From contig JAZSIT010000045.1 in assembly GCA_045533895.1 (NCBI GenBank), positions 2,499-66,498 on the forward strand: DNA of 64,000 nucleotides, in the 5' to 3' direction. Shown here piece by piece: positions 7,268 through 47,510 of the stretch. Under the pieces are notes generated by a model. It saw nothing but the letters and a program-made list of their open reading frames with translations. It searched no databases and was not told the origin of the DNA. Position 1 is the first letter of the stretch. Each line of letters opens with the position of its first letter. Origin of the DNA: Eubacteriales bacterium. Its GTDB lineage: Bacteria; Bacillota; Clostridia; Oscillospirales; CAG-382. Both the position numbers and the translations under genes were made by a program.

Positions 7268-7390
7268 ACTTAATTGTGGGCGTGAGTATTTCGGGGTCCC
7301 CGCAAAAGCGTTTTTTCGTGATATGCTTTGTCTGTAGGGGTGTTTCGTGAAACACCTACAGTGTCCAAAAAACCTTTTGTGGGGTGAATA
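7268..7390 (-). repeat. Intergenic mosaic repeat (GGGGTCCCC family), locus A, between ffh and rpsP
   Basis: Contains tcGGGGTCCCCGCAAAAGCGTTTTTTCGTGATAT...TTCGTGAAACACC...CAAAAAACCTTTTGTGGGG. Aligns nearly base-for-base with 31990-32139 except for one extra unit there. Confidence 0.8.
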
Positions 7391-8728
7391 TTAAAATCCA
7401 AAGTTGCCGAAACGCATTTTTTTACTGCCTTTTCCGGTCTGCTGCTTTGCCATCTGCTTCATAAGCTTGTTTACCTGCTCATACTGCTTAAGCAGACGGT
7501 TTACCTCCTCCACAGGTCTGCCGCAGCCTGCGGCTATACGCTTTTTGCGGGAAGAGTTTATAATATCCGGCTTTGCCCTCTCCTTGGGAGTCATGGAAAG
7601 GATTATACCTTCCATACGGGCTATCTGTCTCTCGTCGATCTGTGCATCCTTGAGCTGGGAGGGCTTTATTCCCGGCATCATGCCAAGAAGCTGCTCCATG
7701 CTGCCCATGTTTTTTATCTGTCTGAACTGGTCAAGATAATCGTCCAGTGTGAAGGAAGATTCAAGGAACTTTTTCTCAAGCTCCGCCGCTTTCTTTTCAT
7801 CAAACTGCTGCTCCGCCTTTTCGATAAGGGACAGCACGTCACCCATACCGAGTATACGGGACGCCATTCTGTCAGGATGGAAAGGTTCGATATTATCTAT
7901 CTTTTCGCCTACGCCGATAAACTTAATGGGCTTGCCGGTAACGTGTCTTACCGAAAGTGCCGCACCGCCTCTTGTATCACCATCCAGCTTGGTGAGGATG
8001 ACGCCCGTAATATCCAGCAGATTGTTAAAGCTTTCTGCTACATTGACAGCGTCCTGACCCGTCATGGCATCTACTACCAACAGAATCTCGGTAGGGTTAA
8101 CCTCTTCGCTTATACGCTTTAATTCAGCCATAAGCACTTCGTCTATATGCAAACGACCTGCCGTATCCACAAAGACCATATCGTGGCCGTACTTACGGGC
8201 ATGGACAAGCGCCTCACGTGCGGTTTTTACGGGGTCTTGGGTGCCGCGCTCAAAAACCTGAACGCCTGCCTGCTCGCCCACTATCTTCAACTGGTCGATA
8301 GCGGCGGGACGGTAAATATCGCAGGCTACGAGCAAAGGATTCTTGCCCTGCTTTTTATACATACGGGCAAGCTTTGCGCAGTGGGTGGTCTTACCGCTAC
8401 CCTGAAGACCGCACATAAGCACTACCGTGGGAGGTGCGGAGGATATGGTAAGCTTTGAGTTACTGCCGCCCATTAGAGCAACCAATTCTTCGTTAACTAT
8501 TTTTACTATTTGCTGTGCGGGAACAAGGCTTTGCATAACGTCCGCGCCCACAGCACGCTCGGACACCTTGGCAACGAAATCCTTAACTACCTTGAAGTTT
8601 ACGTCCGCTTCCAACAGCGCAAGCTTGACTTCACGCATACCTGCCTTTACGTCGGCCTCGGTAAGTCTGCCCTTGTTGCGGAACTTCTTCAAAGCACCCG
8701 TCATTTTTTCTGCAAGACTTTGAAACAT
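7391..8728 (-). CDS. ffh: Signal recognition particle protein Ffh
   Basis: Start at MFQSLAEKMTGALKKF with a GGGAG RBS. GLQGSGKTT, DTAGR and TKLDGD GTPase motifs. Met-rich M domain. Confidence 0.96.
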   Translation of the reverse strand: MFQSLAEKMTGALKKFRNKGRLTEADVKAGMREVKLALLEADVNFKVVKDFVAKVSERAVGADVMQSLVPAQQIVKIVNEELVALMGGSNSKLTISSAPPTVVLMCGLQGSGKTTHCAKLARMYKKQGKNPLLVACDIYRPAAIDQLKIVGEQAGVQVFERGTQDPVKTAREALVHARKYGHDMVFVDTAGRLHIDEVLMAELKRISEEVNPTEILLVVDAMTGQDAVNVAESFNNLLDITGVILTKLDGDTRGGAALSVRHVTGKPIKFIGVGEKIDNIEPFHPDRMASRILGMGDVLSLIEKAEQQFDEKKAAELEKKFLESSFTLDDYLDQFRQIKNMGSMEQLLGMMPGIKPSQLKDAQIDERQIARMEGIILSMTPKERAKPDIINSSRKKRIAAGCGRPVEEVNRLLKQYEQVNKLMKQMAKQQTGKGSKKMRFGNFGF

Positions 8729-8729
8729 T

Positions 8730-9041
8730 TTATTCTCCCAACAGGCTCTCGGCAACCAAGCGTACCTCTGCGGAATCTGTAATGGAAATTATCTTTTCCG
8801 CCGCGCTCTTTACCGCTTGCCCTCTCTCATATACGTGTAAACACTCTTCAAGCTCATACAGTCTTTCCTCGCCGTGCTTGATAAGGTCTCTCACCGCCTG
8901 ACGGGTTATACCGGATTGCTCCGCTATCTCCGCAAGAGAAAGATCCTCGTTATAATAAAGGTCAAGCGCGTCCCTCTGACGGGGGGAAAGCACACGGGAA
9001 TAACAATCGAACAGCAAGGATATTCTCTCTCTTCCGTTCAT
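8730..9041 (-). CDS. ylxM: YlxM/UPF0122 putative DNA-binding protein
   Basis: MNGRERISLLFDCYSRVLSPRQRDALDLYYNEDLSLAEIAE (sigma-70 region-4-like HTH). Conserved position upstream of ffh. GGAGG RBS. The 63-aa upstream ORF extension is rejected. Confidence 0.88.
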   Translation of the reverse strand: MNGRERISLLFDCYSRVLSPRQRDALDLYYNEDLSLAEIAEQSGITRQAVRDLIKHGEERLYELEECLHVYERGQAVKSAAEKIISITDSAEVRLVAESLLGE

Positions 9042-9096: not shown

Positions 9097-9125
9097 ATTA
9101 TATCCTTTGTTTGCGGTTTTGTCAA
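9097..9125 (-). promoter_or_regulatory. Sigma-70-type promoter of ylxM-ffh
   Basis: The minus strand reads TTGACA (9125-9120, embedding the Clp TGA stop), 17 nt, then TATAAT (9102-9097). The -10 ends 2 nt before the terminator stem. Confidence 0.6.
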
Positions 9126-11233
9126 GTACTTTTTTGATATTCTCTTACTTTTTTGAACTGTTTTTCCCACGCCGCATCCTGTGTTATGCGGGTCACGGCG
9201 CGGCACAGCACTCTGGCGCTTCCTCCGCATCCCTCCACCGCCTGCAATATAGCCTCTTCCGGCAGAGAGATTTCCACGCCCTTCTCCACGGCAGCGTTGA
9301 CCAGCTCTTTTGCCCGTTTTGACGCAATACGGCGCAGAGATACCTTGTCGAGAGGCTCAAACCGCACGATATCCTCGATACGGTCGGTAATTTCCGGCGA
9401 AAGAATTTTATCGGTAATACTCTTTTCCCGCTCTCCGGAAAATCCGATACCTGCACCGAGACCGTCCACCGACGCGGTGAAAATTACCGTTGCGTGGGAG
9501 AAGGACACGTTAAGCCCATCGGAATCAGTAAGAAAGCCTCTGTCCAAAATTTGGGAGACCAGCCCCATTACATCGGGATGTGCTTTTTCCACTCCGTCAA
9601 AAAGCACCACGCAAAAGGGAGTGCGGCGGACAGCCTCGGTAAGCACGCCTCCCTCGCCGAAGCCCGTATATCCGGGCGGTGCACCGATAAGACGGGAAGC
9701 CGTATGAGGTTCGGTGTATTCGGACATATCTATAAGCACAAATCCTTTGTCGGTACCGCACAAAGTAAGTGCCAACGCTTTGGCACACTCGGTTTTCCCC
9801 ACACCGTGAGGCCCGTAAAACAACATACTTCCCATGGGACGGTCGGGCTCGGATATACGGGAAAGCCGTCGGCGCATAGCGGCTGTTATGGCTTTTATTG
9901 CTTTTTCCTGACCGATAATGCGGTCGTTCAAAGAATTTTCAATTTGCTCTGCGTTTTCTCCGCCCACAATGAATTCACGAGGGATACCGGATATCTCCCC
10001 TGTGAGAAGGGCGATATCCTCCTCTGTAACCGTTTTTCCGCCGGAAAGCCGCTTTGCCGACGCCGCTTCATCAATAAGGTCAATAGCTTTATCCGGCAGA
10101 CGGCGTCCTGCAATATATCTGTGTGAATATTCCGCCGCCGCGTCCAACGCCTCATGGGATATGCAGACTCCGTGGTGGTTTTCGTACCGTCCTTTAAGCG
10201 CCATAAGCACACGTTTGCATTCCTCCACTGACGGTTCGTTTATATACACCTGCTGGAAACGGCGCTCAAGAGCGGAATCCTTTTCTATACTTTTTTTGAA
10301 TTCTTTTGGAGTGGTTGCGCCGATAAGCTGTATTTCCCCTCTTGCAAGGGCAGGCTTCAAAATGTTGGAAGCGTCTACCGCTCCCTCTGCCGCTCCCGCG
10401 CCTACAAGAGTATGGATTTCGTCTATAAACAAGATGACGCTTTTATCTTCGGTCGCTTCTCTAATGACGGTGCGTAGTTTTTCCTCAAATTCGCCTCGGT
10501 ATTTGGTGCCTGCCACAAGACAGGACATATCGAGGGACAATATTCGTCGGTAGCGCATTTCCTCCGGCACATTACCCTCGGCTATACGAAGTGCAATAGA
10601 TTCTGCCACGGCAGTCTTACCCACTCCGGCCTCACCGATGAGAAGGGGGTTGTTTTTTCGGCGACGGAGAAGAATGCGTATTATACGTCCCTCCTCCCTT
10701 TCTCTGCCTACCACCGGGTCGATTTCACCCCGAAGCGCTTTGTCTGTCAGAGACACCGAGTAACGGTCCAGAGTGGGAGTGGATAAACGGGTTTCCTTTT
10801 TATAGCTTGATTTTTTATTCATCTGTCTTTCCAAAGCCTTCCTGAAGTTATCGGTATCAATATCCATATCCTCCAAAAGGCGTGTTGCCACGCAATCGGA
10901 GGATAAAAGAGCTAAAAGCAAATGAGTTTCGTCCGCGGTGTTTCCCGAAATGACACTTTCCGCCGCGCGTGAAAGTACTCTGCGCATGGCAGGAGTCATA
11001 TCCTCAGGTGCGAGATAAGTCCTCTCCCCCTGCTCGGACAGCATATTTATTTTTTCGCGCAGGGTTTTTTCCGTAAGACCTTTGAGTTCTGTTATATATA
11101 CGGGTATATCTCCCGATATTACCAAAGCCAGCAGAAGATGCTCGGTGCCTACGTAGATATGCCCCATTTCTCCTGCCGTTTTTATTGCTGTTTCCACTAT
11201 ATTTTTTGCGTGATCGGAAAATCTGTTCTGCAT
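9122..11233 (-). CDS. Clp/Hsp100 AAA+ unfoldase with ClpA-like architecture (two Clp_N repeats, D1, D2, no middle domain)
   Basis: D1 has GEAGVGKTAVAE and ILFIDEIHTL. D2 has GPHGVGKTECAKA and VVLFDGVEKAHPDV. IGF loop present (GAGIGFSG). Start chosen at the second ATG (11233) for RBS GGGAGGG spacing. Confidence 0.9.
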   Translation of the reverse strand: MQNRFSDHAKNIVETAIKTAGEMGHIYVGTEHLLLALVISGDIPVYITELKGLTEKTLREKINMLSEQGERTYLAPEDMTPAMRRVLSRAAESVISGNTADETHLLLALLSSDCVATRLLEDMDIDTDNFRKALERQMNKKSSYKKETRLSTPTLDRYSVSLTDKALRGEIDPVVGREREEGRIIRILLRRRKNNPLLIGEAGVGKTAVAESIALRIAEGNVPEEMRYRRILSLDMSCLVAGTKYRGEFEEKLRTVIREATEDKSVILFIDEIHTLVGAGAAEGAVDASNILKPALARGEIQLIGATTPKEFKKSIEKDSALERRFQQVYINEPSVEECKRVLMALKGRYENHHGVCISHEALDAAAEYSHRYIAGRRLPDKAIDLIDEAASAKRLSGGKTVTEEDIALLTGEISGIPREFIVGGENAEQIENSLNDRIIGQEKAIKAITAAMRRRLSRISEPDRPMGSMLFYGPHGVGKTECAKALALTLCGTDKGFVLIDMSEYTEPHTASRLIGAPPGYTGFGEGGVLTEAVRRTPFCVVLFDGVEKAHPDVMGLVSQILDRGFLTDSDGLNVSFSHATVIFTASVDGLGAGIGFSGEREKSITDKILSPEITDRIEDIVRFEPLDKVSLRRIASKRAKELVNAAVEKGVEISLPEEAILQAVEGCGGSARVLCRAVTRITQDAAWEKQFKKVREYQKST

Positions 11234-11290
11234 GCCCATTCCCTCCCAAAATCTATTTTATGTGTTTTTGCGGATTATTGTTAAAACCAC

Positions 11291-11319
11291 TTCCAAAATC
11301 CGCCCGAATGTGATATAAT
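11291..11319 (+). promoter_or_regulatory. Extended -10 promoter
   Basis: TGATATAAT (TGn + TATAAT at 11314-11319) with a weak -35 TTCCAA at 17-nt spacing. Confidence 0.45.
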
Positions 11320-11349
11320 GAATCAAGCACTTTGAAGGGAGGTATATTT

Positions 11350-12060
11350 TTGGCAGATAAAAACAAGAAAAAGGTTGTTTCACGTCCCCTCACGCCGGAC
11401 GAGATTACGGCGCGGGACGCACGCAAAGCCGCCGCCATACGCAAAAAGCGCGCAAGAAGAGAAAAACTCCTTGCCTGCACTGCGGTGCTTCTGGCGGTAT
11501 ATATCGGCATTATTGGAATTATTGCCGCATACGGTATACTTTCATTCAATTCTGTGGCGGAAAGTAACAAAGTTTATTCGGTAGAAGGGTATCTGGGCGA
11601 AACCAAGGTGTTTACCGTGCCCTCATCCCGCGCAACCAATTCATACGGGCTTTATATCCCCTTTTCCACCCTTACAAAGCTTTGCCCCATGTCTATTGCC
11701 GGAGATAAGGACAGCGTTGCCATAATCCTGCCCGATTCGGATGATTATATTAAATGCTTTTCCAATTCCTCTTCTATTCAGGTAAACGATTCTCCCTGCC
11801 GTCTTTCCTGCCCCGTATTGTTCGAGGAGGACGATTGGCTTATACCCGTTGAAATACTTGAGTATATTAACGGCATTAATGTTACGTACGAAAAAGGGAA
11901 CGTGTGTATAATCCATGTAAAAAGCGCGGATACTTATCTTTCCGCATCCCATTCCCTGCCTATCGGTATCGACCATATTGAGTTCAGTCCTCTGTATGAT
12001 ACCGATTATATCCACGGCGAAGAAAGCGATGTAAGCGATACGGATGAGTTTTTCGAATAA
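11350..12060 (+). CDS. Membrane-anchored hypothetical protein (basic N-terminus, one TM, extracytoplasmic domain with a copper-amine-oxidase-N/stalk-like segment)
   Basis: ORF 11332..12060. The TTG at 11350 sits 7 nt after GGGAGG. TM segment LLACTAVLLAVYIGIIGIIAAYGIL. Acidic C-terminal tail. Confidence 0.7.
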   Translation: MADKNKKKVVSRPLTPDEITARDARKAAAIRKKRARREKLLACTAVLLAVYIGIIGIIAAYGILSFNSVAESNKVYSVEGYLGETKVFTVPSSRATNSYGLYIPFSTLTKLCPMSIAGDKDSVAIILPDSDDYIKCFSNSSSIQVNDSPCRLSCPVLFEEDDWLIPVEILEYINGINVTYEKGNVCIIHVKSADTYLSASHSLPIGIDHIEFSPLYDTDYIHGEESDVSDTDEFFE

Positions 12061-30125: not shown

Positions 30126-30878
30126 TTGGTACAGATAATTAACGGGATGTTGATACCCTTTGTGGGCACGGCGCTGGGCGCGGCGTGCGTATTCTTTTTG
30201 AAAAAGGACTTGTCCCCACGAGTGCAAAAGGGGTTTCAGGGCGGTGCCGCAGGGGTTATGGTAGCGGCAAGCTTTTTTAGTCTGCTGGTGCCGTGTATTG
30301 AGCAAAGCGAGGGAATGGGAAAACTGAAATTTATTCCCGCCGCCGCAGGATTGTGGACGGGATTCCTTTTTTTAATGCTGCTTGATATAATCATACCTAA
30401 AATATACGCCAGTGCAAAGGCAGACGGCGGTAAAAGCAAAAGAACCACCATGCTGTTTTTGGCAGTAACACTGCACAACGTGCCGGAAGGAATGGCTGTG
30501 GGCGCGGTGCTGGCAGGGCTTGCCGAAGGGGACGCAGGCATAACCGCCGCCGCGGCGGTAACACTTTCTTTGGGAATTGCATTCCAGAATTTCCCCGAAG
30601 GCGCCATAATTTCCCTGCCCCTGAAAGCAAAAGGAATGGGCAAAGGAAAAGCGTTTATGTGGGGAGCGCTGTCCGGCGCGGCAGAGCCGGTGGCGGCGGT
30701 ATTAACGCTTCTGCTGGCAGGCTTTCTTACACCCCTTATACCCTACTTTCTGTCCTTTGCCGCAGGCGCTATGATATTTGTGGTGGTTGAGGAGCTGATG
30801 ACCGAAAACTCACGCACGGGGAATATATTTTTTGCTATTGGATTCACACTGATGCTGATAACCGACTGTATTTTATAA
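30126..30878 (+). CDS. ZIP-family divalent metal (zinc) transporter
   Basis: HNVPEGMAVG and QNFPEGAIISLPL motifs. 250 aa, TTG start. Confidence 0.88.
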   Translation: MVQIINGMLIPFVGTALGAACVFFLKKDLSPRVQKGFQGGAAGVMVAASFFSLLVPCIEQSEGMGKLKFIPAAAGLWTGFLFLMLLDIIIPKIYASAKADGGKSKRTTMLFLAVTLHNVPEGMAVGAVLAGLAEGDAGITAAAAVTLSLGIAFQNFPEGAIISLPLKAKGMGKGKAFMWGALSGAAEPVAAVLTLLLAGFLTPLIPYFLSFAAGAMIFVVVEELMTENSRTGNIFFAIGFTLMLITDCIL

Positions 30879-30943
30879 AAGGTTGAATTTTTATAAAAAA
30901 TATTGTATAATGTGATATACCACAAAAAGGAAGTAAATACAAA

Positions 30944-31909
30944 ATGATTTTTGAAAAGCAGATAGAAAAGGTGTTTCGCGCCACCCTTTACAGCAGGTGC
31001 GACGATAACGGAACGGCGTATTATTTTTCCCACAAGGATTTTTTGGGGCTTAACGCACAGCCGTACACCTTCACTTCATCAACAGGAAACAAGCTAAAGG
31101 GGTATTTTTATTCATACGAAAATCCCGTACCCAGCCGTCTTGTAGTCTTTGACCACGGTTACGGCGGCGGACACCGCTCTTATATGAAGGAAATTGAAAT
31201 GCTGTGCAGACACGGCTACAAGGTCTTTTCATACGACCACACAGGCTGTATGGAGTCCGAGGGAGACGGCTGCGGCGGATTTGCACAATCCCTCCGCGAT
31301 CTGGACGACTGCATTACCGCGTTAAAGGCGGACAACAGTGTTGACACCTCGGACATCTCGGTTATCGGACATAGCTGGGGCGGATTTTCAACAATGAATA
31401 TTGCTTCCCTTCATTCGGATATCACCCACGTGGTTGTTATGAGCGGATTTGTTTCGGTTGAAAAAATGGTACACCAAAACTTCTCGGGTCTGCTTAAAGG
31501 CTACCGCAAGCATATTTACGGAATTGAACAGCAAGCCAACCCCAAATACGTGGGATTTGACGGAACGGTTACTTTGGCAAATACAAATGCAAAGGTACTG
31601 CTTATCTATTCGGATAACGACGCGCTGGTTAAAAAGGAAATACACTTTAATTCCCTTAAAAACGCCCTTGAAAACAAGGAAAACGTTACCTTGCTTCTTG
31701 TGAAAAACAAGGGACATAATCCCAATTACACCGAAAACGCCGTAAAGCTTTTGGGCGAATACGGAAGAGCAAAGGGAAAAGCGATAAAGAAAAAGCTGCT
31801 TAACACCGACGAGGACAAAAAGAAGTTTGTGGCTTCCTTTGATTGGGATAAAATTACCGAGCAAGACGAAAAGGTCTGGAAAGAAATATTTAATATACTT
31901 GATAAATAA
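30944..31909 (+). CDS. Alpha/beta hydrolase (S9/dienelactone-hydrolase-like)
   Basis: GHSWGG nucleophile elbow. 321 aa. Confidence 0.8.
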   Translation: MIFEKQIEKVFRATLYSRCDDNGTAYYFSHKDFLGLNAQPYTFTSSTGNKLKGYFYSYENPVPSRLVVFDHGYGGGHRSYMKEIEMLCRHGYKVFSYDHTGCMESEGDGCGGFAQSLRDLDDCITALKADNSVDTSDISVIGHSWGGFSTMNIASLHSDITHVVVMSGFVSVEKMVHQNFSGLLKGYRKHIYGIEQQANPKYVGFDGTVTLANTNAKVLLIYSDNDALVKKEIHFNSLKNALENKENVTLLLVKNKGHNPNYTENAVKLLGEYGRAKGKAIKKKLLNTDEDKKKFVASFDWDKITEQDEKVWKEIFNILDK

Positions 31910-31912
31910 ATT

Positions 31913-31945
31913 AAAGGCTCTGCGTACGCAGAGCCTTTGGTTTTG
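31913..31945 (+). terminator. Palindromic terminator (left copy)
   Basis: AAAGGCTCTGCGTACGCAGAGCCTTT followed by GGTTTT, 4 nt after the hydrolase stop. 23/26 identical to 35048-35073. Confidence 0.75.
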
Positions 31946-32139
31946 TGGGATATATATTCGGGGTCCCCGCAAATCAAGGATTTGTGGGGTGTATATTTTG
32001 GGTCCCCGCAAAAGTGTTTTTTCGTGATATATGCCTTCTGTAGAGGTGTTTTGGGGTTCCCATAAAATCCGCAGGATTTTAGGGGTGGTTTTTCGTGAAA
32101 CACCCACGGCAACCAAAAAACCTTTTGTGGGGGGTATTT
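31941..32139 (-). repeat. Intergenic mosaic repeat (GGGGTCCCC family), locus B, about 4 units
   Basis: Units: TTCGGGGTCCCCGCAAATCAAGGATTTGTGGGG; TTGGGTCCCCGCAAAAGTGTTTTTTCGTGATAT; GGGGTTCCCATAAAATCCGCAGGATTTTAGGGGTGG (reverse complement of the 47.3-kb unit); TTCGTGAAACACCC...CAAAAAACCTTTTGTGGGGGG. Abuts the ABC exporter stop codon. Confidence 0.85.
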
Positions 32140-33852
32140 TTACTGTGAAATGGTAAACAGAGAATAAAAATATCCTTTTTTGGAAATAAGCTCGTCAAAG
32201 GTACCGATCTCGACAGCAGTCCCGTTTTTTAGTGTGATAATACCGTCATATCGTCTTAACAGCCCTTCATCAAGATCGTGAGTAACAGTGATGCAGGTGA
32301 TGCCGTCAAGCCCCAGAATGGACGAGGACACCTGATATGCCGTTTCCGCATCAAGGGAGGCAGTGGCTTCGTCAACCAAAAGCACACTTGAATTTTTGAG
32401 CAGACTGCGTGCGATTGAAACGCGCTGTTTTTCGCCTCCGGAAAGGAAAACACCGTTTTCACCGCACAAATAATCCTCACCCTTGCTTTCCGCAAGAAGG
32501 GAAAGCCCCGAAAGCCGCATTGCGTCCGATACCTGCTCATCGGAAAAATCACTGAACATAGTAATATTATCACGGAGGGACGCATTGAATACAAAGACGT
32601 TTTGCTGAATAATGCTTTGCATATCGTAAAGATTGCCGCTGTCGATACTGCGAAGCTCGGTATCATCGTAATATATTCCGCCCTCGTAATCGTGGTAGGA
32701 GGACATCAACAAATTAAGTAAAGTAGATTTTCCGCTTCCCGACGCGCCGACGAGAGCGTACTTTTTACCTGCCTCGAAGGTGACGTTAAGATTTTTCAGC
32801 ACTGTTTTTTCCTCATCATAGCCAAAGGTGACGCCGCGCAGAGTTATTCCTCTTTCAAGCGCGGTAACCGAGCAGTCGCCTCCGTCGGCTTTGTTTTCTT
32901 CAAGAGCGGAGGCAATTTTTTCCACAAGTCCACGGGCGGATTTATATTCCGCAAGGCAGGTGGGAATTACCGAAATGGGCTGTATGATATAGTTCATCAT
33001 CTGAACAAAGACCATTACCGTACCCGCAGTAATACCCTTGCCCGAAAGAGCAAGATATGCGCCGAACAAAAACACGCCCAGTTGTGCGACAATTCCCGCA
33101 ATAGCGCCGAACATTTGAACCAAAACAAGTATTTTTTCTTTTTCACCTTTGGCTTTTGCTAAGTTTTTTACCTTTTCGCCAAAGATTCGGCACATCTGCG
33201 TTTCTGCCTTAAAGGATTTTATAACGGTAAATCCGCCGATACAATCCTTTAACGACATGGTATATTCCTCGTTATGGATAGACACACTTTTTTCCGCCTG
33301 CTCTGCCTTACCGCCCGTTATAATTGCCGCCAGAACGGGCAAAAGGGAAAGCAAAACGGCAACGAGAGTGAGAAGCGGGCTGTACCATATCATCATAACA
33401 ACCGCGCCGATGAGAAGAGGCAGACATTCGCCGACAACAAAAATATTTGAAATATACCCCTTCTCTACCGCCGCAATATCGTTGGTCAAGGCTGATACGT
33501 AAAGAGAAGATCTTTCTTTTGAAAAGGCAGATATCTTCTTTTGGGTAAGAATGCGGAATATATATTCTTTGTACTGCGCCATACCCTTTGAAATAAGTGC
33601 GGGTTTTGTATGGTAGATTATAAAATAAATCACCGCCACGGCAAAAACAAGACAAAGGGTGATAACGGCAAGCTCTGTAAGTCCAAGCGCCTTTTCACTG
33701 CCGCTTACAAGGTCTACAAGCTGTTGTAAAAGCCACGCCACCGCGAGATTTGCGGCAACATTTAACAGCGAAGCCAGTGTCATAAGCACAAAAGGCAATG
33801 CATTACCTTTATAAAACTGCTTTACAAAGGGACGAATATTGGTTTGTTTCAT
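32140..33852 (-). CDS. ABC exporter, fused TMD-NBD half-transporter
   Basis: 570 aa with 6 TM N-terminal half. GASGSGKST, LSGGEKQR, VLLVDEATASLD. Confidence 0.92.
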   Translation of the reverse strand: MKQTNIRPFVKQFYKGNALPFVLMTLASLLNVAANLAVAWLLQQLVDLVSGSEKALGLTELAVITLCLVFAVAVIYFIIYHTKPALISKGMAQYKEYIFRILTQKKISAFSKERSSLYVSALTNDIAAVEKGYISNIFVVGECLPLLIGAVVMMIWYSPLLTLVAVLLSLLPVLAAIITGGKAEQAEKSVSIHNEEYTMSLKDCIGGFTVIKSFKAETQMCRIFGEKVKNLAKAKGEKEKILVLVQMFGAIAGIVAQLGVFLFGAYLALSGKGITAGTVMVFVQMMNYIIQPISVIPTCLAEYKSARGLVEKIASALEENKADGGDCSVTALERGITLRGVTFGYDEEKTVLKNLNVTFEAGKKYALVGASGSGKSTLLNLLMSSYHDYEGGIYYDDTELRSIDSGNLYDMQSIIQQNVFVFNASLRDNITMFSDFSDEQVSDAMRLSGLSLLAESKGEDYLCGENGVFLSGGEKQRVSIARSLLKNSSVLLVDEATASLDAETAYQVSSSILGLDGITCITVTHDLDEGLLRRYDGIITLKNGTAVEIGTFDELISKKGYFYSLFTISQ

Positions 33853-34934
33853 GTTCTCTCTCCTTTAATTTCCTGCCACATTTCGTATACCTCGGCAGGG
33901 GCACTTGCTTGCGTAAGGATATTTTCCGCTATCTTCATAACCGATTCACCCAAATCGTCGTACGCAGTGGTTGCTTCGGAGGATACCGACAAAAATTTAA
34001 CGTTATCCAATTTATGGGTAGGTGTATTATCAAAGGCGGATGCAAGCTCATACGCTATGCGAAGGTAGGAGGGGACGGCTTCCCAAATTCCCGCTTTTGC
34101 CGAAAGCTCAGCACAAGCTGCGTAACAGGGGGCTATAATTCTATCCAAATAACAAACTGTGTCCTTTTGAATTTTTAGGTTTTCAAAGGTGTGAGCAAGC
34201 CACAAATAAGCGTCTGCTGCCGCCAAAGGGTCCCCTTTTTTCTCGTAATAATCCCCGCATGCCTTCATTGTACGAAGAGCATTGTTGATAATACCGCTCA
34301 GAGCTTTATCAATATACGCTTCCACCTCTGCAGAATCAAAATTCTCTTTTTCTATACAGGCCAGCGCAATAAGTGAATCGTTTACACCGCATACGTTGTG
34401 TTTTTTAAGTATTTCAAGCCCTTTGTCCTTCTTCCCCAGCGCCATATAGCATTGGGCTTGTGAGTTACGGATGGATGCTTCGCTTATATCCGGATCCCTA
34501 TTCTGCGCCAAAAGAGAAACTGACTTATCCAAAAGCTCGATACTTCGGTACAAATATTTTTCGTTTTTCTCTTCTATACCCGCCACCTCGTATAATTCGC
34601 CTGCGCGGTAAACGACCTGAAAATTGTTGGGATAACGTAGCAGTGCGATTTCCGCTTGTTTGGCGGCACTCTCATATTTTTTATCGCACTGAAGGGCATA
34701 TATCCTTTTTTCTGCCTCTTTTGCACCGCCCACGCTCACCTCATATCCCACAAGCACATCCAGCGATACTTGAAACAGTTCTGCCATACGGACAAGTATA
34801 TCAAGCTCCGGCACGCTTTTACCGTTTTCCCATTTATACGCCGCGCCTACGGTAACACCCAAAGAATCAGCAAGTTTTTCCTGCGTGAACCCTTTTTCTT
34901 TTCTTAAACGCCTTATGTTTTCTGCTAAAACCAC
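33849..34934 (-). CDS. XRE-family HTH regulator with a long TPR-like C-terminal domain (RRNPP-like architecture)
   Basis: GTG start. IRRLRKEKGFTQEKLADSLGVTVGAAYKWENGKSVPELDILVRMAELFQVSLDVLVGY, then about 290 aa of helical-repeat sequence. ATGA-type 4-nt overlap with the ABC exporter. Confidence 0.85.
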   Translation of the reverse strand: MVLAENIRRLRKEKGFTQEKLADSLGVTVGAAYKWENGKSVPELDILVRMAELFQVSLDVLVGYEVSVGGAKEAEKRIYALQCDKKYESAAKQAEIALLRYPNNFQVVYRAGELYEVAGIEEKNEKYLYRSIELLDKSVSLLAQNRDPDISEASIRNSQAQCYMALGKKDKGLEILKKHNVCGVNDSLIALACIEKENFDSAEVEAYIDKALSGIINNALRTMKACGDYYEKKGDPLAAADAYLWLAHTFENLKIQKDTVCYLDRIIAPCYAACAELSAKAGIWEAVPSYLRIAYELASAFDNTPTHKLDNVKFLSVSSEATTAYDDLGESVMKIAENILTQASAPAEVYEMWQEIKGERT

Positions 34935-34958
34935 TATTATCCACCCTTTCTTTGTTTT

Positions 34959-34987
34959 ATTATACCTCCATTAACGCCCTATTTCAA
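34959..34987 (-). promoter_or_regulatory. Promoter of the XRE-TPR/ABC operon
   Basis: The minus strand reads TTGAAA-17-TATAAT. The -35 lies inside one arm of a 10-bp inverted repeat (34982-34991 / 35033-35042). Confidence 0.65.
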
Positions 34988-35045
34988 CCCACCGCCATTA
35001 CAATTTGGCTATTATTTTTTATACCAACAGTATGGGTTGAAACGC

Positions 35046-35079
35046 AAAAAGGCTCTGCGCGTGCAGAGCCTTTGTTTTT
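35046..35079 (-). terminator. Palindromic terminator (right copy) of the P-type ATPase gene
   Basis: AAAGGCTCTGCGCGTGCAGAGCCTTT flanked by A5 and GTTTTTG, 7 nt after the ATPase stop. Confidence 0.8.
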
Positions 35080-35080
35080 G

Positions 35081-37693
35081 TTATTTGTGCTTTTTAAGAA
35101 GTCCCATAGCCTTTACAAGCTCCATTACCACCAGAGGAACAAATATGAGTCCCAATGCGATGAGGTACAGATGCCAAGGCAGGTATACCAGGCCGAAAAC
35201 AACGGAAACGGGAGTGAACAGCACGATAGCCATTAAGACTATTGCGATAGCCGCCGCCTGATTGAGCTTTTTATTGCCAAAGAAGCCGATGCGGAACAGC
35301 GAACGGTCGGACCGCATATTATATGCCTGAACTATCTGGGAGAACGCCAGCACTGCGAATGCCATTGTCTGACCTGCGCTTTCGCCTGCGGCATTAAGAC
35401 CTATTGCGTATGCGGCAAGTGCAAGAGCACCGAACATTATACCCTGAAGCACTATTCTCACACCGTAGCCGTGAGCAAACAGACCTTCTGTCTTGGGTCT
35501 GGGAGGAACGTCCATAATATCCTTTTCGGTAGGCTCCATACCCAGAGCGATGGCAGGCAGACCGTCTGTAATAAGGTTTATCCAAAGAAGCTGCATTGAC
35601 ATAAAGGGGCTCTTGTGCCAGATTAGCATTGCCACGAAAACAGACACAACTTCACCGAAGTTGGTGCCCAACAGGAAGCCTACAACCTTCTTGATATTGG
35701 TGTAGATGCCTCTGCCCTCTTTTACAGCGTCAACGATAGTGGCGAAGTTATCGTCGGAAAGGGTCATATCCGATGCGCCCTTTGCAACGTCGGTACCGGT
35801 AATACCCATTGCACAGCCGATATCGGCGGCTTTAAGTGCAGGCGCGTCGTTAACGCCGTCACCGGTCATGGAAACAACATGTCCCTTCTTTTGCCAAGCC
35901 TTAACAATTCGTATCTTGTTTTCGGGAGAAACGCGGGCGTATACCGAGATATCCTCCACGCAGGCGTCAAGCTCCGCTTCGGACATACTGTCAAGCTCGG
36001 TGCCCGTAACGGCACGCTGACCGGGACGGAGTATGCCAAGCTCACGGGCGATGGCGGATGCGGTAATAATATGGTCGCCGGTTATCATAACGGGGCGTAT
36101 GCCTGCGCGCAGACAGGTTGCAACCGCCGCCTTTGCCTCGGGACGAGGCGGGTCGATCATACCCAGAATACCCATAAAGGTAAGACCGTTTTCAAGGGCT
36201 TCGGGAGTGATTTCGGCAGGAAGCTCGTCAATAACCTTATATCCCACCGCAAGCACACGGAGTGCGTCCTCGCTGAGAAGCTCGGTAAAGCGCTTGGCTT
36301 CGTCGATATTACCCTTAACGCAACGGGATGCCATTACGTCAAACGCGCCCTTTACGATTACAGTTATCTTTCCGTCGATGTTATTGACAGATGTCATAAG
36401 CTTTCTGTCAGAATCGAAGGGAATGGTAGCAAGACGGGGATAAGCGGCGTTAAGCTCCTCCTTGGACATACCGTTGTTATATGCCGCAAGGACGATAGCA
36501 GTTTCCGTAGGGTCGCCGATATGGGTGACCTTATCCGCCTCAACCAAAACAGAACCGTCACTGCACAGAGTTCCGTATGCGAGAAGCTTTTTCATATCCT
36601 CGCTGTTGGTGTGGGAGATATCCTCGGAGTTCTTCTCCCCTTCTACCCAGCCTTTTACCAAGGTCATACGGTTTTGGGTGAGAGTGCCTGTTTTATCCGA
36701 ACAAATAATAGACGCGCCGCCCAGAGTTTCTACTGCGGGGAGACGGCGGATAACAGCGTTTTTCTTTGCAAGGCGCTGTACGCCGATGGAAAGAACTATG
36801 GTTACGATTGCGGGAAGTCCCTCGGGTATTGCGGAAACGGCGAGGGAGACTGCTGTCATAAATATCTCAAGAGGGTTAAGATCATTAATAAGTCCTACGA
36901 TAAATATGACAACACATATACCGAGGGCGAGAAAACCAAGATATTTTCCCAGTTTTGCAAGCTTTTTCTGCAGAGGGGTCTGACCTTCGTCTTCGCCCGA
37001 AAGAAGGGCTGCTATTTTGCCCATCTCGGTTTCCATACCGATATTGGTTACCACTGCGGTAGCGGTACCGTAGGTAATGCTACAGCCGGAATAAACCATA
37101 TTGCTGCGGTCACCCAGAGGAGAATCCTCGCCTACCAAGGCAGACGCATCCTTTTCCGTGGGGACAGATTCGCCTGTCAAAGCAGATTCTTCGCTCTTAA
37201 GAGAGGCACTGTATATAAGGCGGGCATCTGCAGGTACGAAATCGCCTGCTTCCAGCTTGATAATATCACCGGGAACCAAGGCGGAAGCCATAACTACCTG
37301 CTCCTTACCGCTGCGGATGACTCGGGAGTGGGGCGCGGACATACTCTTTAGTGCTTCAAGAGCTTTTTCCGCCTTACTTTCCTGCATAACGCCCATAATG
37401 GCGTTTACAACAACTATAACAAGGATAAGCAACGGCTCGAAAAAGCCTTTAGCCTCCCCCTCAAGACAAGCAACGACAAAGGAAACTGCCGCCGCCGCAA
37501 GGAGAATAATAATCATAACGTCCTTAAACTGGTCAAGAAACTTAAGGAACATTCCTTTTTTCTTTTTGCCCTTCAACACGTTGGCGCCGTACTGCGCCTG
37601 ACGGGAAGCGACCTCTTCCGCCGACAGACCTGTATTAACGTCGGTCTGTAAAGCCTTAAGCGTGTCTTCGCAATTCAAATTGTGGTAATTCAT
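35081..37693 (-). CDS. Calcium-translocating P-type ATPase (P2A/P2B type)
   Basis: CSDKTGTLTQN, MITGDH, MTGDGVNDAPALKAADIG. 870 aa with 10 TM. Confidence 0.92.
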   Translation of the reverse strand: MNYHNLNCEDTLKALQTDVNTGLSAEEVASRQAQYGANVLKGKKKKGMFLKFLDQFKDVMIIILLAAAAVSFVVACLEGEAKGFFEPLLILVIVVVNAIMGVMQESKAEKALEALKSMSAPHSRVIRSGKEQVVMASALVPGDIIKLEAGDFVPADARLIYSASLKSEESALTGESVPTEKDASALVGEDSPLGDRSNMVYSGCSITYGTATAVVTNIGMETEMGKIAALLSGEDEGQTPLQKKLAKLGKYLGFLALGICVVIFIVGLINDLNPLEIFMTAVSLAVSAIPEGLPAIVTIVLSIGVQRLAKKNAVIRRLPAVETLGGASIICSDKTGTLTQNRMTLVKGWVEGEKNSEDISHTNSEDMKKLLAYGTLCSDGSVLVEADKVTHIGDPTETAIVLAAYNNGMSKEELNAAYPRLATIPFDSDRKLMTSVNNIDGKITVIVKGAFDVMASRCVKGNIDEAKRFTELLSEDALRVLAVGYKVIDELPAEITPEALENGLTFMGILGMIDPPRPEAKAAVATCLRAGIRPVMITGDHIITASAIARELGILRPGQRAVTGTELDSMSEAELDACVEDISVYARVSPENKIRIVKAWQKKGHVVSMTGDGVNDAPALKAADIGCAMGITGTDVAKGASDMTLSDDNFATIVDAVKEGRGIYTNIKKVVGFLLGTNFGEVVSVFVAMLIWHKSPFMSMQLLWINLITDGLPAIALGMEPTEKDIMDVPPRPKTEGLFAHGYGVRIVLQGIMFGALALAAYAIGLNAAGESAGQTMAFAVLAFSQIVQAYNMRSDRSLFRIGFFGNKKLNQAAAIAIVLMAIVLFTPVSVVFGLVYLPWHLYLIALGLIFVPLVVMELVKAMGLLKKHK

Positions 37694-39327: not shown

Positions 39328-39493
39328 GGTAGGAATTTGTAAAACAAATTCCTTTCTCATTTCGCGTTTTTTAGACGTTTTCGCTACGCCAGCTGTAGAT
39401 TACTACAGCACGCTTGCAAAAACGCCTTCTGCTTGATTTTGTCATCGCTCACTTCAAGACGTTGCTTTCGCTGAATTACAGACGGAGGTTTTG

Positions 39494-39522
39494 TTGATTT
39501 TTTGGGGCAAAACCGTTATAAT
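39494..39522 (+). promoter_or_regulatory. Promoter of the CD3324-like gene
   Basis: TTGATT-17-TATAAT. Confidence 0.55.
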
Positions 39523-39584
39523 CGTTTTGGGAATTGTAACGCGCGGAGAACAGTGCTATGCTGTTGTCACAGGAGGAGACAAAT

Positions 39585-40610
39585 ATGAAATACGTAAATG
39601 CAAACGATATACTTCCGAAAGAACTGCTTGACCGAATTAAGCCCTATGCGGCAGGAAAGCTTTTATACGTTCCATCAGAACAGGAGAAAAGAGCTTGGGG
39701 TGAAAAGACCGGTGCCCGTGCGGAATATTACGCCCGTAACAATGCAATACGAACAGGATTTTCAAAAGGAATGGCAGTTGAAGTGTTGGCAGACAAATAT
39801 TTTCTTACTCCCGAAACAATTAAAAAAATAATTTACGCAAAGGAGAAAGAAATGAAAGACAAACGTTTTCCCGAAATTATGTTTGATTACAAAATTACCC
39901 CCTGCGATAAGCCCGTGCCTACCATTCGTTTGAATAAACACCCCCTATACGAAACGGAATTCAAGGAAGGCGCGGCGGCAAAATTCGCGGCGTACCCCTA
40001 CCCTTACAGACGTATTGCCGATATAACCGAATCTATGGCTGTGGGAGAGACCGCCGTACACGGAGAACCGGGAATGAAATTTGAAATCATCTGCAACAAA
40101 GGTGAGCCGGAATATGAAAGACGGTACGCTGTAATCTCTCAAATAAACGGCGATATTTGCAGACATATCGCCGCAGAAACCTATGAAAACGGAAGTACCC
40201 AAATACGCACGTTTCTTGAAGGCGATGACTTTTTTGAGGACTGGGGCGGAGATATGCCGTTGGTTATAGAAAAACTCGGTTTGATAAACAAATGCGGTAA
40301 CAACATTACCTTCAGGGATGAAAATGTATATTCCGACGCAGTGGGAAGATATACGGTTACAATGAACGGAAAAGAATACGATACGGTTTTGGTAGTCAAC
40401 GTAAGCGGACATGACGCCGGCGTTGTGACCGAGGAATACTTGACTCTTGACGGAAGCAGTATTTTGTTCCGAAGATTTGACAGAGGAAATATGTCCCGCG
40501 TGCAGGGAGAAAAGTGTTTTTCCGAGTATCTGCCCGATTCGGAGCGTATTTTCGTAAACGGAGACGAATTCGTATTGTGGATAGACACCATAAGCGAAAG
40601 GGTGTGTTAA
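39585..40610 (+). CDS. CD3324-family-like N-terminal HTH domain fused to an uncharacterised domain of about 250 aa
   Basis: MKYVNANDILPKELLDRIKPYAAGKLLYVPSEQEKRAWGEKTGARAEYYARNNAIRTGFSKGMAVEVLADKYFLTPETIKKIIY matches the pattern of the about 90-aa clostridial CD3324-type proteins, as I recall it. AGGAGG RBS. Confidence 0.7.
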   Translation: MKYVNANDILPKELLDRIKPYAAGKLLYVPSEQEKRAWGEKTGARAEYYARNNAIRTGFSKGMAVEVLADKYFLTPETIKKIIYAKEKEMKDKRFPEIMFDYKITPCDKPVPTIRLNKHPLYETEFKEGAAAKFAAYPYPYRRIADITESMAVGETAVHGEPGMKFEIICNKGEPEYERRYAVISQINGDICRHIAAETYENGSTQIRTFLEGDDFFEDWGGDMPLVIEKLGLINKCGNNITFRDENVYSDAVGRYTVTMNGKEYDTVLVVNVSGHDAGVVTEEYLTLDGSSILFRRFDRGNMSRVQGEKCFSEYLPDSERIFVNGDEFVLWIDTISERVC

Positions 40611-40696
40611 CGAGTTTATTGCCCCGATTTTGAAAATATGCAACTATTGCACATTTTCCGAAAAATAATTACGCAACTTTTGCATAATATCATAAC

Positions 40697-47272: not shown

Positions 47273-47476
47273 TTACCCCACAAAAAATCACCCCTAAAAT
47301 GCTGCGCATTTTTGGGTCCCCCAAAAAAAATCACCCCTAAAATGCTGCGCATTTTTGGGGACCCCAAAAAAAAATCACCCCTAAAATGCTGCGCATTTTT
47401 GGGGACCCCGAAAAAAATCACCCCTAAAATGCTGCGCATTTTTGGGGACCCCGAAAAAAATCACCCGCACAAAAGC
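47273..47476 (+). repeat. Tandem array: 4 full and 1 truncated copies of a 43-44 bp unit (GGGGACCCC family), locus C
   Basis: Units start at 47288, 47331, 47375 and 47418, with a truncated copy at 47461. Unit sequence is TCACCCCTAAAATGCTGCGCATTTTTGGGGACCCC(G/A)A7-9. Units 3 and 4 are identical. Confidence 0.95.
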
Positions 47477-47510
47477 AAAAGGAGCCGATTTTGGCTCCTT
47501 TTTTTGTTTG
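47475..47510. terminator. Bidirectional terminator
   Basis: AAAA-GGAGCC-gatttt-GGCTCC-TTTTTTT. Confidence 0.85.

Follow-up and report, generated by a model that had tools for sequence, protein, structure and literature searches.

A Regulator and ABC Exporter Cassette between Two Copies of a Putative Terminator Hairpin: A Presence/Absence Polymorphism in Uncultured Gut Clostridia

A stretch of 64 kb from a Eubacteriales bacterium (contig JAZSIT010000045.1; this whole stretch is called the window below) contains a small operon with genes for an XRE-type regulator and an ABC half-exporter, which is enclosed by two nearly identical palindromes and, outside of these, by the genes for an alpha/beta hydrolase and a P-type cation ATPase. 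In each of two clades, alleles with the operon and empty ones occur side by side in close relatives, and the boundaries are exactly the same. The hairpin repeat delimits the interval precisely, as a discrete indel which represents a real difference by gain or loss; the locus as a whole is a presence/absence polymorphism in uncultured gut Clostridia and not a new mobile element. Its probable origin is an ancient insertion downstream of the ATPase terminator, by which the terminator would have been duplicated, the unit now segregating by deletion or allele exchange.

Related loci, designated by L numbers, were traced to contigs by way of hydrolase homologs, homologs of the XRE regulator and a pattern scan for the hairpin stem. 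The comparison of junctions comprised 15 related loci with hydrolase and ATPase flanks. Occupied at this junction are the window, L001, L011/L012, L013, L014 and L215; empty are L002 (GCA_045595785.1), L003-L005, L119 (Clostridia bacterium RGIG1645), L007 and L009/L010, and a further locus is L006 (GCA_054266475.1). A group of cassette homologs at about 50% identity is represented by one locus, L216 (GCA_045535805.1). Hydrolase orthologs with 68-98% identity adjoin the junction in all related loci, and the ATPase is 86-99% identical across all of them; the hydrolase of the window had no match in an exact-protein index. Counts of the hairpin stem refer to the 64-kb window and the related loci, not to the whole source genome, except for the scan across species described below.

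The Hairpin Pair

The left hairpin, AAAGGCTCTGCGTACGCAGAGCCTTT (31913-31938), is a perfect 26-nt palindrome with an 11-bp stem and the loop GTAC; the right one, AAAGGCTCTGCGCGTGCAGAGCCTTT (35048-35073), has the same stem and the loop GCGT. Written by their arms, the left copy reads AAAGGCTCTGC-GTAC-GCAGAGCCTTT and the right copy AAAGGCTCTGC-GCGT-GCAGAGCCTTT. A first-pass annotation of the window, made from the sequence alone, had given these coordinates, the identity of 23 out of 26 positions and the confinement of all three mismatches to the 4-nt loop, and had placed the hairpins just after the stop codons of the inward-pointing hydrolase and ATPase genes. All of this was borne out: the hydrolase stop ends at 31909, 3 nt ahead of the left hairpin, and the ATPase stop codon begins at 35081, 7 nt past the right one.

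Around the hairpins the direct repeat extends over 34 nt at 88% identity. Local alignment of the two intergenic stretches of the window gave a score of 46, which was reached in 0 of 1000 shuffles. The exact 11-mer arm occurs in the window in these two palindromes only. When one mismatch was allowed, 8 matches were counted against 1.07 expected (8 were reached in 0 of 100 shuffles), and the one-mismatch matches elsewhere in the window were non-palindromic. Within this part of the genome the hairpin is not dispersed, and with two copies in 64 kb a REP-like dispersed repeat was rejected.

Both hairpins look like bidirectional intrinsic terminators. Folding energies are -18.7 to -23.3 kcal/mol, with z-scores of -4.3 to -6.8, for both copies and both strands (left hairpin: -23.3 and -18.9 kcal/mol on its two strands), and the stems of 11 bp with 6 G-C pairs correspond to the stable stem-loop of an intrinsic terminator. 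A consensus terminator scan recognised the right copy in both orientations, the left copy on the minus strand; on the plus strand the left copy is followed by TTTGGTTTTG, which provides the T-tract after a stem near a stop codon. Judged from this arrangement, the left hairpin would terminate both the hydrolase message (plus strand) and that of the cassette operon (minus strand), and the right hairpin would end the ATPase transcript (minus strand) and insulate the cassette promoter.

Pairs of hairpins with the same stem, more than 1 kb apart, were sought in the fetched loci (1.67 Mb with 431 strong hairpins). The only further pair, in L095, was discarded as a look-alike, since it belongs to a duplication of more than 370 nt, which is a different phenomenon.

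Empty Sites

According to the first-pass annotation, an empty site should consist of convergent genes sharing one hairpin. Such sites, with the same outer flanks, were found in L002, L003-L005 and L119. L002 is closely related to the window (ATPase 98.4% and Zip 100% identical) and has no cassette. Its gap of 36 nt between hydrolase and ATPase consists of ATT followed by AAAGGCTCTGCGCGTGCAGAGCCCTT and GTTTTTGTTA; read from the hydrolase stop, the junction is ATT, then AAAGGCTCTGC GCGT GCAGAGCCCTT, then GTTTTTGTTATTTGTGC. This is the left outer flank of the window, one hairpin with the loop of the right copy, and the right outer flank of the window. In a blastn comparison of the window with L002, the two alignments overlap by the 34-nt repeat. 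The cassette is present in L001, whose hydrolase is 98% identical to that of the window, and L003-L005 (hydrolase 84%) lack it; their one hairpin shares the stem but has a longer loop.

A second clade is formed, on the basis of the ATPase, by the occupied L013 together with L119 and L006 (96-97% mutual identity, 90% to the window). L119 is empty and contains one hairpin, the loop of which, ATAC, is the ATPase-side loop of L013; the sequences outside of the hairpin agree with L013, and the hydrolase of L119 shares 97.2% identity with its counterpart in the cassette-bearing L215. In both clades it is the ATPase-side loop which is retained at empty sites. The distant empty lineages L007 and L009/L010 possess unrelated terminators at the junction. 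Had all relatives carried the cassette with unrelated hairpins, the first-pass annotation would have been contradicted; empty relatives and same-stem pairs were found instead.

Age of the Cassette and Allele Exchange

XRE homologs with identities of 97%, 79%, 61% and 60% (L011/L012, L013, L014 and L215, respectively) are all located between the same ATPase and hydrolase. In these loci two hairpins of the same stem, with differing loops, flank the cassette at both junctions; at the left position the same stem is present in L001, L011, L013, L014 and L215. Identities to the window are 71-73% for the ABC exporter (L013, L014, L215), 60-79% for the XRE regulator, 68-76% for the hydrolase, 66-69% for Zip and 88-90% for the ATPase. 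The GC content of the cassette (0.43-0.475) is within the range of the window, and the codon-usage correlations with the rest of the window, 0.86 for the ABC gene and 0.70 for the XRE gene, are inside the range of the window as well. This comparison of positions 32140-34934 with the flanks, which had been proposed as a check, indicated a native composition. Since the divergence of the cassette matches that of its flanks and its composition is native, the cassette appears to be old at this junction and not a recent import. Of the acquisition footprint proposed in the first-pass annotation, the discrete indel with a duplicated terminator can be retained; a recent acquisition cannot, given the divergent cassettes at the same site and the native composition.

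Nucleotide identity varies along the locus. Between the window and L002 it is ~99% in Zip, ~89% in the hydrolase (30800-31946) and ~97% in the proximal part of the ATPase, which suggests that the hydrolase divergence is a recombination tract ending at the junction. Between L013 and L215 it falls from 97% in the promoter to 60-73% in XRE and rises to 99-100% over the 5' half of ABC. Because identity is mosaic both at the junction and inside the cassette, alleles of the locus have probably been exchanged by homologous recombination, and such exchange at the flanks can move occupied and empty states without a dedicated enzyme. L013 (9841-12873) and L215 (201-3240) represent two deep types of regulator alleles in otherwise near-identical cassettes; the pattern is like that of pherotypes and suggests that the sensor is under diversifying selection or has undergone allele replacement.

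The Hairpin in Other Genomes

A scan for the stem in one genome per species, with loops of 2-14 nt, detected at least 120 stretches with single copies. The hosts included Vibrio, Comamonas, Hymenobacter, cyanobacteria and many Clostridia, and among the matches listed L119 was the only one at the junction described here. Because of these single copies in unrelated genomes, the hairpin sequence would appear to be a generic terminator solution which has arisen repeatedly, and not a signature of a mobile element. The uniqueness of the stem, as claimed in the first-pass annotation, holds within the window and does not extend to other genomes.

The related loci contain one or two copies of the hairpin each, always at this junction, and from copy to copy the arms are separated by 2 to 10 nt. 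The stem is common to occupied and empty sites in all lineages which ever carried the cassette; two lineages with other hairpins at the junction are without it.

In L006 the hairpin arms AAAGGCTCTGC ... GCAGAGCCTTT (10972-11353) are split by an insert of ~360 nt in the loop. The insert contains a Gut-1 RNA (Rfam RF01706, 67 bits, above threshold) at 11013-11083 on the plus strand and a weaker, inverted Gut-1 copy at 11105-11191 on the minus strand, with strong hairpins at both ends of the insert.

Proposed History of the Locus

The history which we regard as probable would have begun with the insertion of an operon with its own regulatory region just past the ATPase terminator, before the related clades split. 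The insertion would have duplicated the whole terminator hairpin, i.e., A-tract, 11-bp stem, loop and T-tract, and both copies would have been retained as intrinsic terminators serving three transcription units. The block of GGGGTCCCC-type repeats (31939-32139) would have been added later, in the clade of the window only. At present the unit is polymorphic, occupied and empty alleles being found within at least two clades at the species level. Either recombination or slippage of replication between the 26-nt direct repeats could remove it and would leave exactly one hairpin, and homologous recombination in the conserved flanks could swap occupied and empty alleles; a recombinase would be needed for neither. 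Which of the two, deletion or allele exchange, produced each empty site we can only infer. Since the cassette is old at the site and of native composition, the empty sites nearest to the window are at least as likely to be secondary, by precise deletion or allele replacement, as to be ancestral states.

Several points weigh against this history. We know of no documented enzyme-free route by which a whole hairpin of 26-36 nt would be duplicated at insertion, and no description of it came up when the literature was searched for cassettes with naturally duplicated terminators. Deletion between 26-nt repeats which are 3 kb apart is expected to be rare. The duplication of a hairpin was seen at two independent loci only, the second being L216. 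The outgroups L007 and L009 are empty, with unrelated hairpins, and each empty site may go back either to a deletion or to a junction which never contained the cassette. Furthermore, ~15 copies have an unchanged stem, although nucleotide identity in the flanks is no higher than 72-81%. This constancy can be ascribed to purifying selection on a terminator, since a control terminator, that after the Na/H exchanger, likewise kept its stem between the clade of the window and L009 (it is replaced in other lineages); a sequence-specific role of the stem would also fit.

Alternative Explanations

In L216 an XRE (49%) and ABC (62%) pair has a YhcG-like gene on one side and sigma-factor genes on the other, a locus unrelated to that of the window. 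Two copies of another hairpin, ACGGCAGGACTTTTGTTCTTGCCGTTGCTTTTTG and ACGGCGGGGACTGCGGTTCCTGCCGTTGCTTTTTG, enclose the pair. The copies differ mainly in the loop and are the only two in 21 kb; their alignment score of 38 was reached in 0 of 1000 shuffles, and the duplicated unit comprises ~35 nt. The regulatory region of L216 aligns with that of the window from ~10-15 nt past the hairpin, including the TTCAACCCA/TGGGTTGAA repeat around the -35 hexamer. In both the window and L216 a co-directional gene precedes the cassette, which is situated shortly past the terminator of that gene and ends with a copy of the hairpin. Because the L216 cassette has its own, different duplicated hairpin, the duplicated hairpin appears to be tied to the locus and not to the cassette, and this makes the duplication of a target terminator during insertion more likely than an event of the Campbell type, for which the attachment site would be fixed. 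The case of L216 hints at a systematic insertion mechanism.

It is conceivable, although rather unlikely, that the operon is a non-autonomous mobile unit: a structure-specific integrase acting in trans would cut on both sides of the terminator hairpin, and gap repair would duplicate the palindrome. By analogy, and with no greater expectation, the hairpin pair might then be a target-site duplication of 26-36 bp, as with Cas1 and the CRISPR repeat or a casposase and its target. In a wider form, which is put forward with the same considerable doubt, XRE-TPR and ABC operons could constitute an unrecognised class of cassettes without recombinase, which insert past intrinsic terminators and duplicate the whole 26-36-bp hairpin; the mechanism would be a trans-acting structure-specific integrase or a replication template switch at the hairpin. 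Such a unit would account for homologous cassettes at two independent loci, each with its own duplicated hairpin and each placed shortly past the terminator of a gene in the same orientation, for cassette homology which begins right past the hairpin, and for the absence of such hairpin pairs otherwise from 1.67 Mb of assorted loci. The loop of the same hairpin holds the different insert of 360 nt in L006, as if the site attracted insertions. However, the ends of the cassette, as read in the sequences of the window and of related occupied loci, show no terminal inverted repeats; the cassette has diverged together with its flanks and gives no sign of recent movement; and two loci were sampled, L216 being known in the occupied state only. 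No integrase or transposase domain was detected among the 50 long open reading frames (ORFs) of the 64-kb window, in agreement with the first-pass annotation, which had noted no recombinase. Searches of plasmids, phages and viral contigs for the XRE or ABC proteins yielded no orthologs, and thus no carrier element. A metagenome scan with the XRE alignment, which captures generic helix-turn-helix patterns, listed matches of at most 38% identity, none of them with an orthologous XRE and ABC pair.

Known types of elements were also rejected. A transposon or insertion sequence (IS) was dismissed in view of the missing transposase domain and of inner cassette ends without inverted repeat; its short duplication (2-15 bp) is not matched by a unit of 26 nt here and ~35 nt in L216. 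An element of the IS200/IS605 type should take both end hairpins along, yet the empty sites keep one complete hairpin. For a rolling-circle or Helitron-like element, or a group II intron past the terminator, no such genes were present, and the repeat is a full duplication.

Improbable is the explanation that the hairpin is an attachment site, at which a circular cassette integrates and excises by means of a site-specific recombinase of the host or a helper. Direct repeats flanking the unit, with one copy staying in the empty sites, would be expected from it; the conservation of the stem in occupied and empty sites of all cassette-carrying lineages, with two lineages of other hairpins lacking the cassette, and the retention of the ATPase-side loop in empty sites of both clades can also be cited in its favour. 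An arm spacing of 2-10 nt is hard to reconcile with the core of a tyrosine recombinase, however, and the perfect stems without extrahelical bases or R/L-box consensus are not those of attC; perfect stems and varying spacing led to the rejection of integron attC and Xer/dif cores altogether. In addition, the hairpin of L216 is wholly different, yet a circle must share the target sequence; the same hairpin occurs singly, without a cassette, in the at least 120 stretches of unrelated genomes; and no recombinase is encoded nearby among the window ORFs.

There is equally little reason to expect a recent horizontal acquisition into the genome of the window, with the closest empty relatives as the ancestral state. 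L002 and L003-L005 are indeed empty with a single hairpin, and the window and L002 differ to an unusual degree in the hydrolase, adjacent to the junction, which suggests a recombination tract ending there. The presence of cassettes at this site in lineages of deep divergence, where cassette and flanks differ to a matching extent, the native GC content and codon usage, and three further occupied relatives at 97-99% identity (L001, L011 and L012) argue against it.

Finally, that the hairpins are unrelated look-alike terminators, copies of a dispersed repeat or operator sites of the XRE regulator is very improbable: the stem is a generic terminator-like sequence which has arisen in at least 120 stretches of unrelated genomes, and XRE regulators bind palindromes, but the two copies in 64 kb stand exactly at the indel boundaries with a similarity reached in 0 of 1000 shuffles, five more loci with the cassette have the same pairing, the spacing between the arms is not constant, the hairpin persists at empty sites, where the regulator is missing, and L216 keeps the helix-turn-helix (HTH) and promoter motifs with a different hairpin. 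The persistence without regulator and the difference in L216 were the grounds on which the operator was rejected.

Comparison with Known Systems

The closest known kind is the minimal mobile element of Neisseria, which is described as having conserved flanks and differing whole-gene content, taken up by homologous recombination (PMC3082526, citing Snyder et al.). The locus studied here likewise has two conserved flanking genes, hydrolase and ATPase, in all 15 related loci, a content which varies between strains (cassette, nothing, or the 360-nt insert of L006), and no mobility gene, since the cassette holds XRE and ABC only. The mosaic identity is consistent with recombination in the flanks. 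In contrast to this element, the states here are occupied, empty or a small unrelated insert, not alternative gene cassettes, and the hosts are uncultured gut Clostridia, which are not known to be naturally transformable. A duplicated whole terminator as the boundary of the cassette is outside the definition of the minimal mobile element (PMC3082526).

The direct target repeat at both ends of the insert and the single copy at the empty site resemble a target-site duplication, and the duplicated unit is a palindrome of about the length of a CRISPR repeat, as in CRISPR adaptation. Staggered integration by transposons, casposons or Cas1-Cas2 (duplication of the CRISPR repeat) yields such duplications, the ordinary size of which is 2-15 bp. 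Here the length is 26-36 bp, far longer; no transposase, casposase or Cas1 was found, nor any terminal inverted repeats or sign of current mobility.

Loss of the unit would be similar to the precise excision of Tn5 and Tn10, which proceeds by RecA-independent slippage between short direct repeats, aided by palindromes. It leaves one repeat and no scar, and the repeats are hairpin-forming here too. The repeats at our locus are, however, separated by 3.1 kb; they would act as terminators, in contrast to transposon ends with a 9-bp duplication, and slippage is the presumed process.

A small unit of promoter and genes between imperfectly conserved palindromes, with no internal recombinase, also recalls integron cassettes, Xer-dif modules and integrase-less att elements. 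Unlike integron cassettes, the stems here are perfect, without attC features and without a core of the GTTRRRY type; there is no integron integrase or attI, and both flanking sites are the same, which is not so in arrays. Variable arm spacing and a locus-specific hairpin (L216) distinguish it from att and Xer-dif elements.

The locus provides a natural example of a small accessory operon which can be carried, lost and exchanged without a mobility gene. The terminator duplication would insulate three transcription units and, at the same time, supply the repeats for a scar-free loss. If it proved to be systematic, it would point to an undescribed way of inserting genes at terminators: a new operon would arrive already insulated by a terminator at both ends, and pairs of same-stem terminators a few kb apart would be a genome signature for such insertions.

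Genes and Regulatory Region of the Cassette

The hydrolase gene (30944-31909, plus strand; Pfam Hydrolase_4, Abhydrolase_1) converges on the cassette from the left, and the ATPase gene (35081-37693, minus strand; Pfam E1-E2_ATPase, Cation_ATPase_N, Cation_ATPase_C) is co-directional with it on the right. NCBIfam models for Ca-ATPases matched the latter, but only the PMCA-type model TIGR01517 scored above its cut-off (514.3 versus 507.05 bits). Within the interval, the gene calls and the promoter of the first-pass annotation (repeat block, ABC half-exporter, XRE-TPR regulator and a promoter of its own) could be substantiated. The ABC half-exporter (32140-33852, minus strand; Pfam ABC_membrane, ABC_tran) has transmembrane and ATPase domains and no peptidase domain; its NCBIfam matches (MsbA, HepA, bacteriocin exporter) were all sub-threshold and no equivalog cut-off was reached. 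The XRE regulator (33849-34934, minus strand; Pfam HTH_3) consists of an HTH domain and a TPR-like helical C-terminal domain, and the two genes overlap by 4 nt. A Pfam TPR was detected in homologs of the regulator only, not in that of the window; the AlphaFold2 (AF2) model (pLDDT 91.4) displays the HTH domain and a TPR-like superhelix. Without the repeat block the cassette measures ~2.95 kb. A sensor-controlled exporter is a reasonable reading of these predictions.

The best matches of the model among solved structures were PlcR, ComR, PrgX and NprR, regulators of the RRNPP type, with which the cassette regulator appears to share an HTH-XRE N-terminus and a TPR-like helical domain; the deep allelic types within near-identical cassettes are also reminiscent of their pherotypes. 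In contrast to what would be expected of a member, the TM-scores are low (only 0.2-0.34), the partner gene is an ABC exporter without peptidase domain, and there is no room for an adjacent gene of a signalling peptide: XRE and ABC overlap by the 4 nt mentioned, the distance from the -10 hexamer to the start codon is ~25 nt, and beyond ABC only ~10 nt separate its stop from the hairpin in L013, L014 and L215.

The regulatory region (34935-35047, minus strand) contains the promoter TTGAAA-17-TATAAT (34987..34959 on the minus strand), with 11 of 12 consensus positions. A 9-nt inverted repeat, TTCAACCCA (34983-34991) and its complement TGGGTTGAA (35033-35041), flanks an A-rich stretch, and its proximal arm overlaps the -35 hexamer. 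The inverted repeat is kept in cassette homologs down to 49% protein identity (L216) and is a candidate operator of the XRE regulator. The whole region is conserved in all cassette-bearing loci including L216, with homology beginning ~10-15 nt past the hairpin. An Rfam search of the interval gave nothing above threshold.

The repeat block (31939-32139) consists of dispersed hairpin repeats of the GGGGTCCCC type and is related to those at 7272-7392 and 47276-47492. It is ~125 nt shorter in L011 and absent from L013, L014 and L215; for this reason it would appear to be a later addition, specific to the clade of the window and outside of the conserved cassette. In these three regions of the window, short hairpin repeats of the GGGGTCCCC/ATCCGCAGGATTTTAGGGG type are intergenic and lie beside terminators. 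The family includes four tandem units of 43-44 nt adjoining the terminator at 47477-47505, and related copies flank the hairpin in L013 and L119.

Other Variable Segments

A second strain-specific segment of ~1.16 kb is present in the window at 39469-40631, with one ORF (39558-40610) for which no Pfam family scored above the cut-off. L002 and L011 hold ~47 nt in its place, and its junctions have no hairpin duplication. L009 contains a solo XRE-type gene (7882-8949; 29% identity to the cassette regulator), located between an ABC_tran gene and Zip relative to L006, with copies of the dispersed hairpin repeat TCCCCAAAAATCCGCAGGATTT to its left and right (7640-7690, 9120-9165). A two-component system, with response regulator and histidine kinase, occurs between the ATPase and the Na/H exchanger in L007 (13738-15452) and L014 (222-1936) only.

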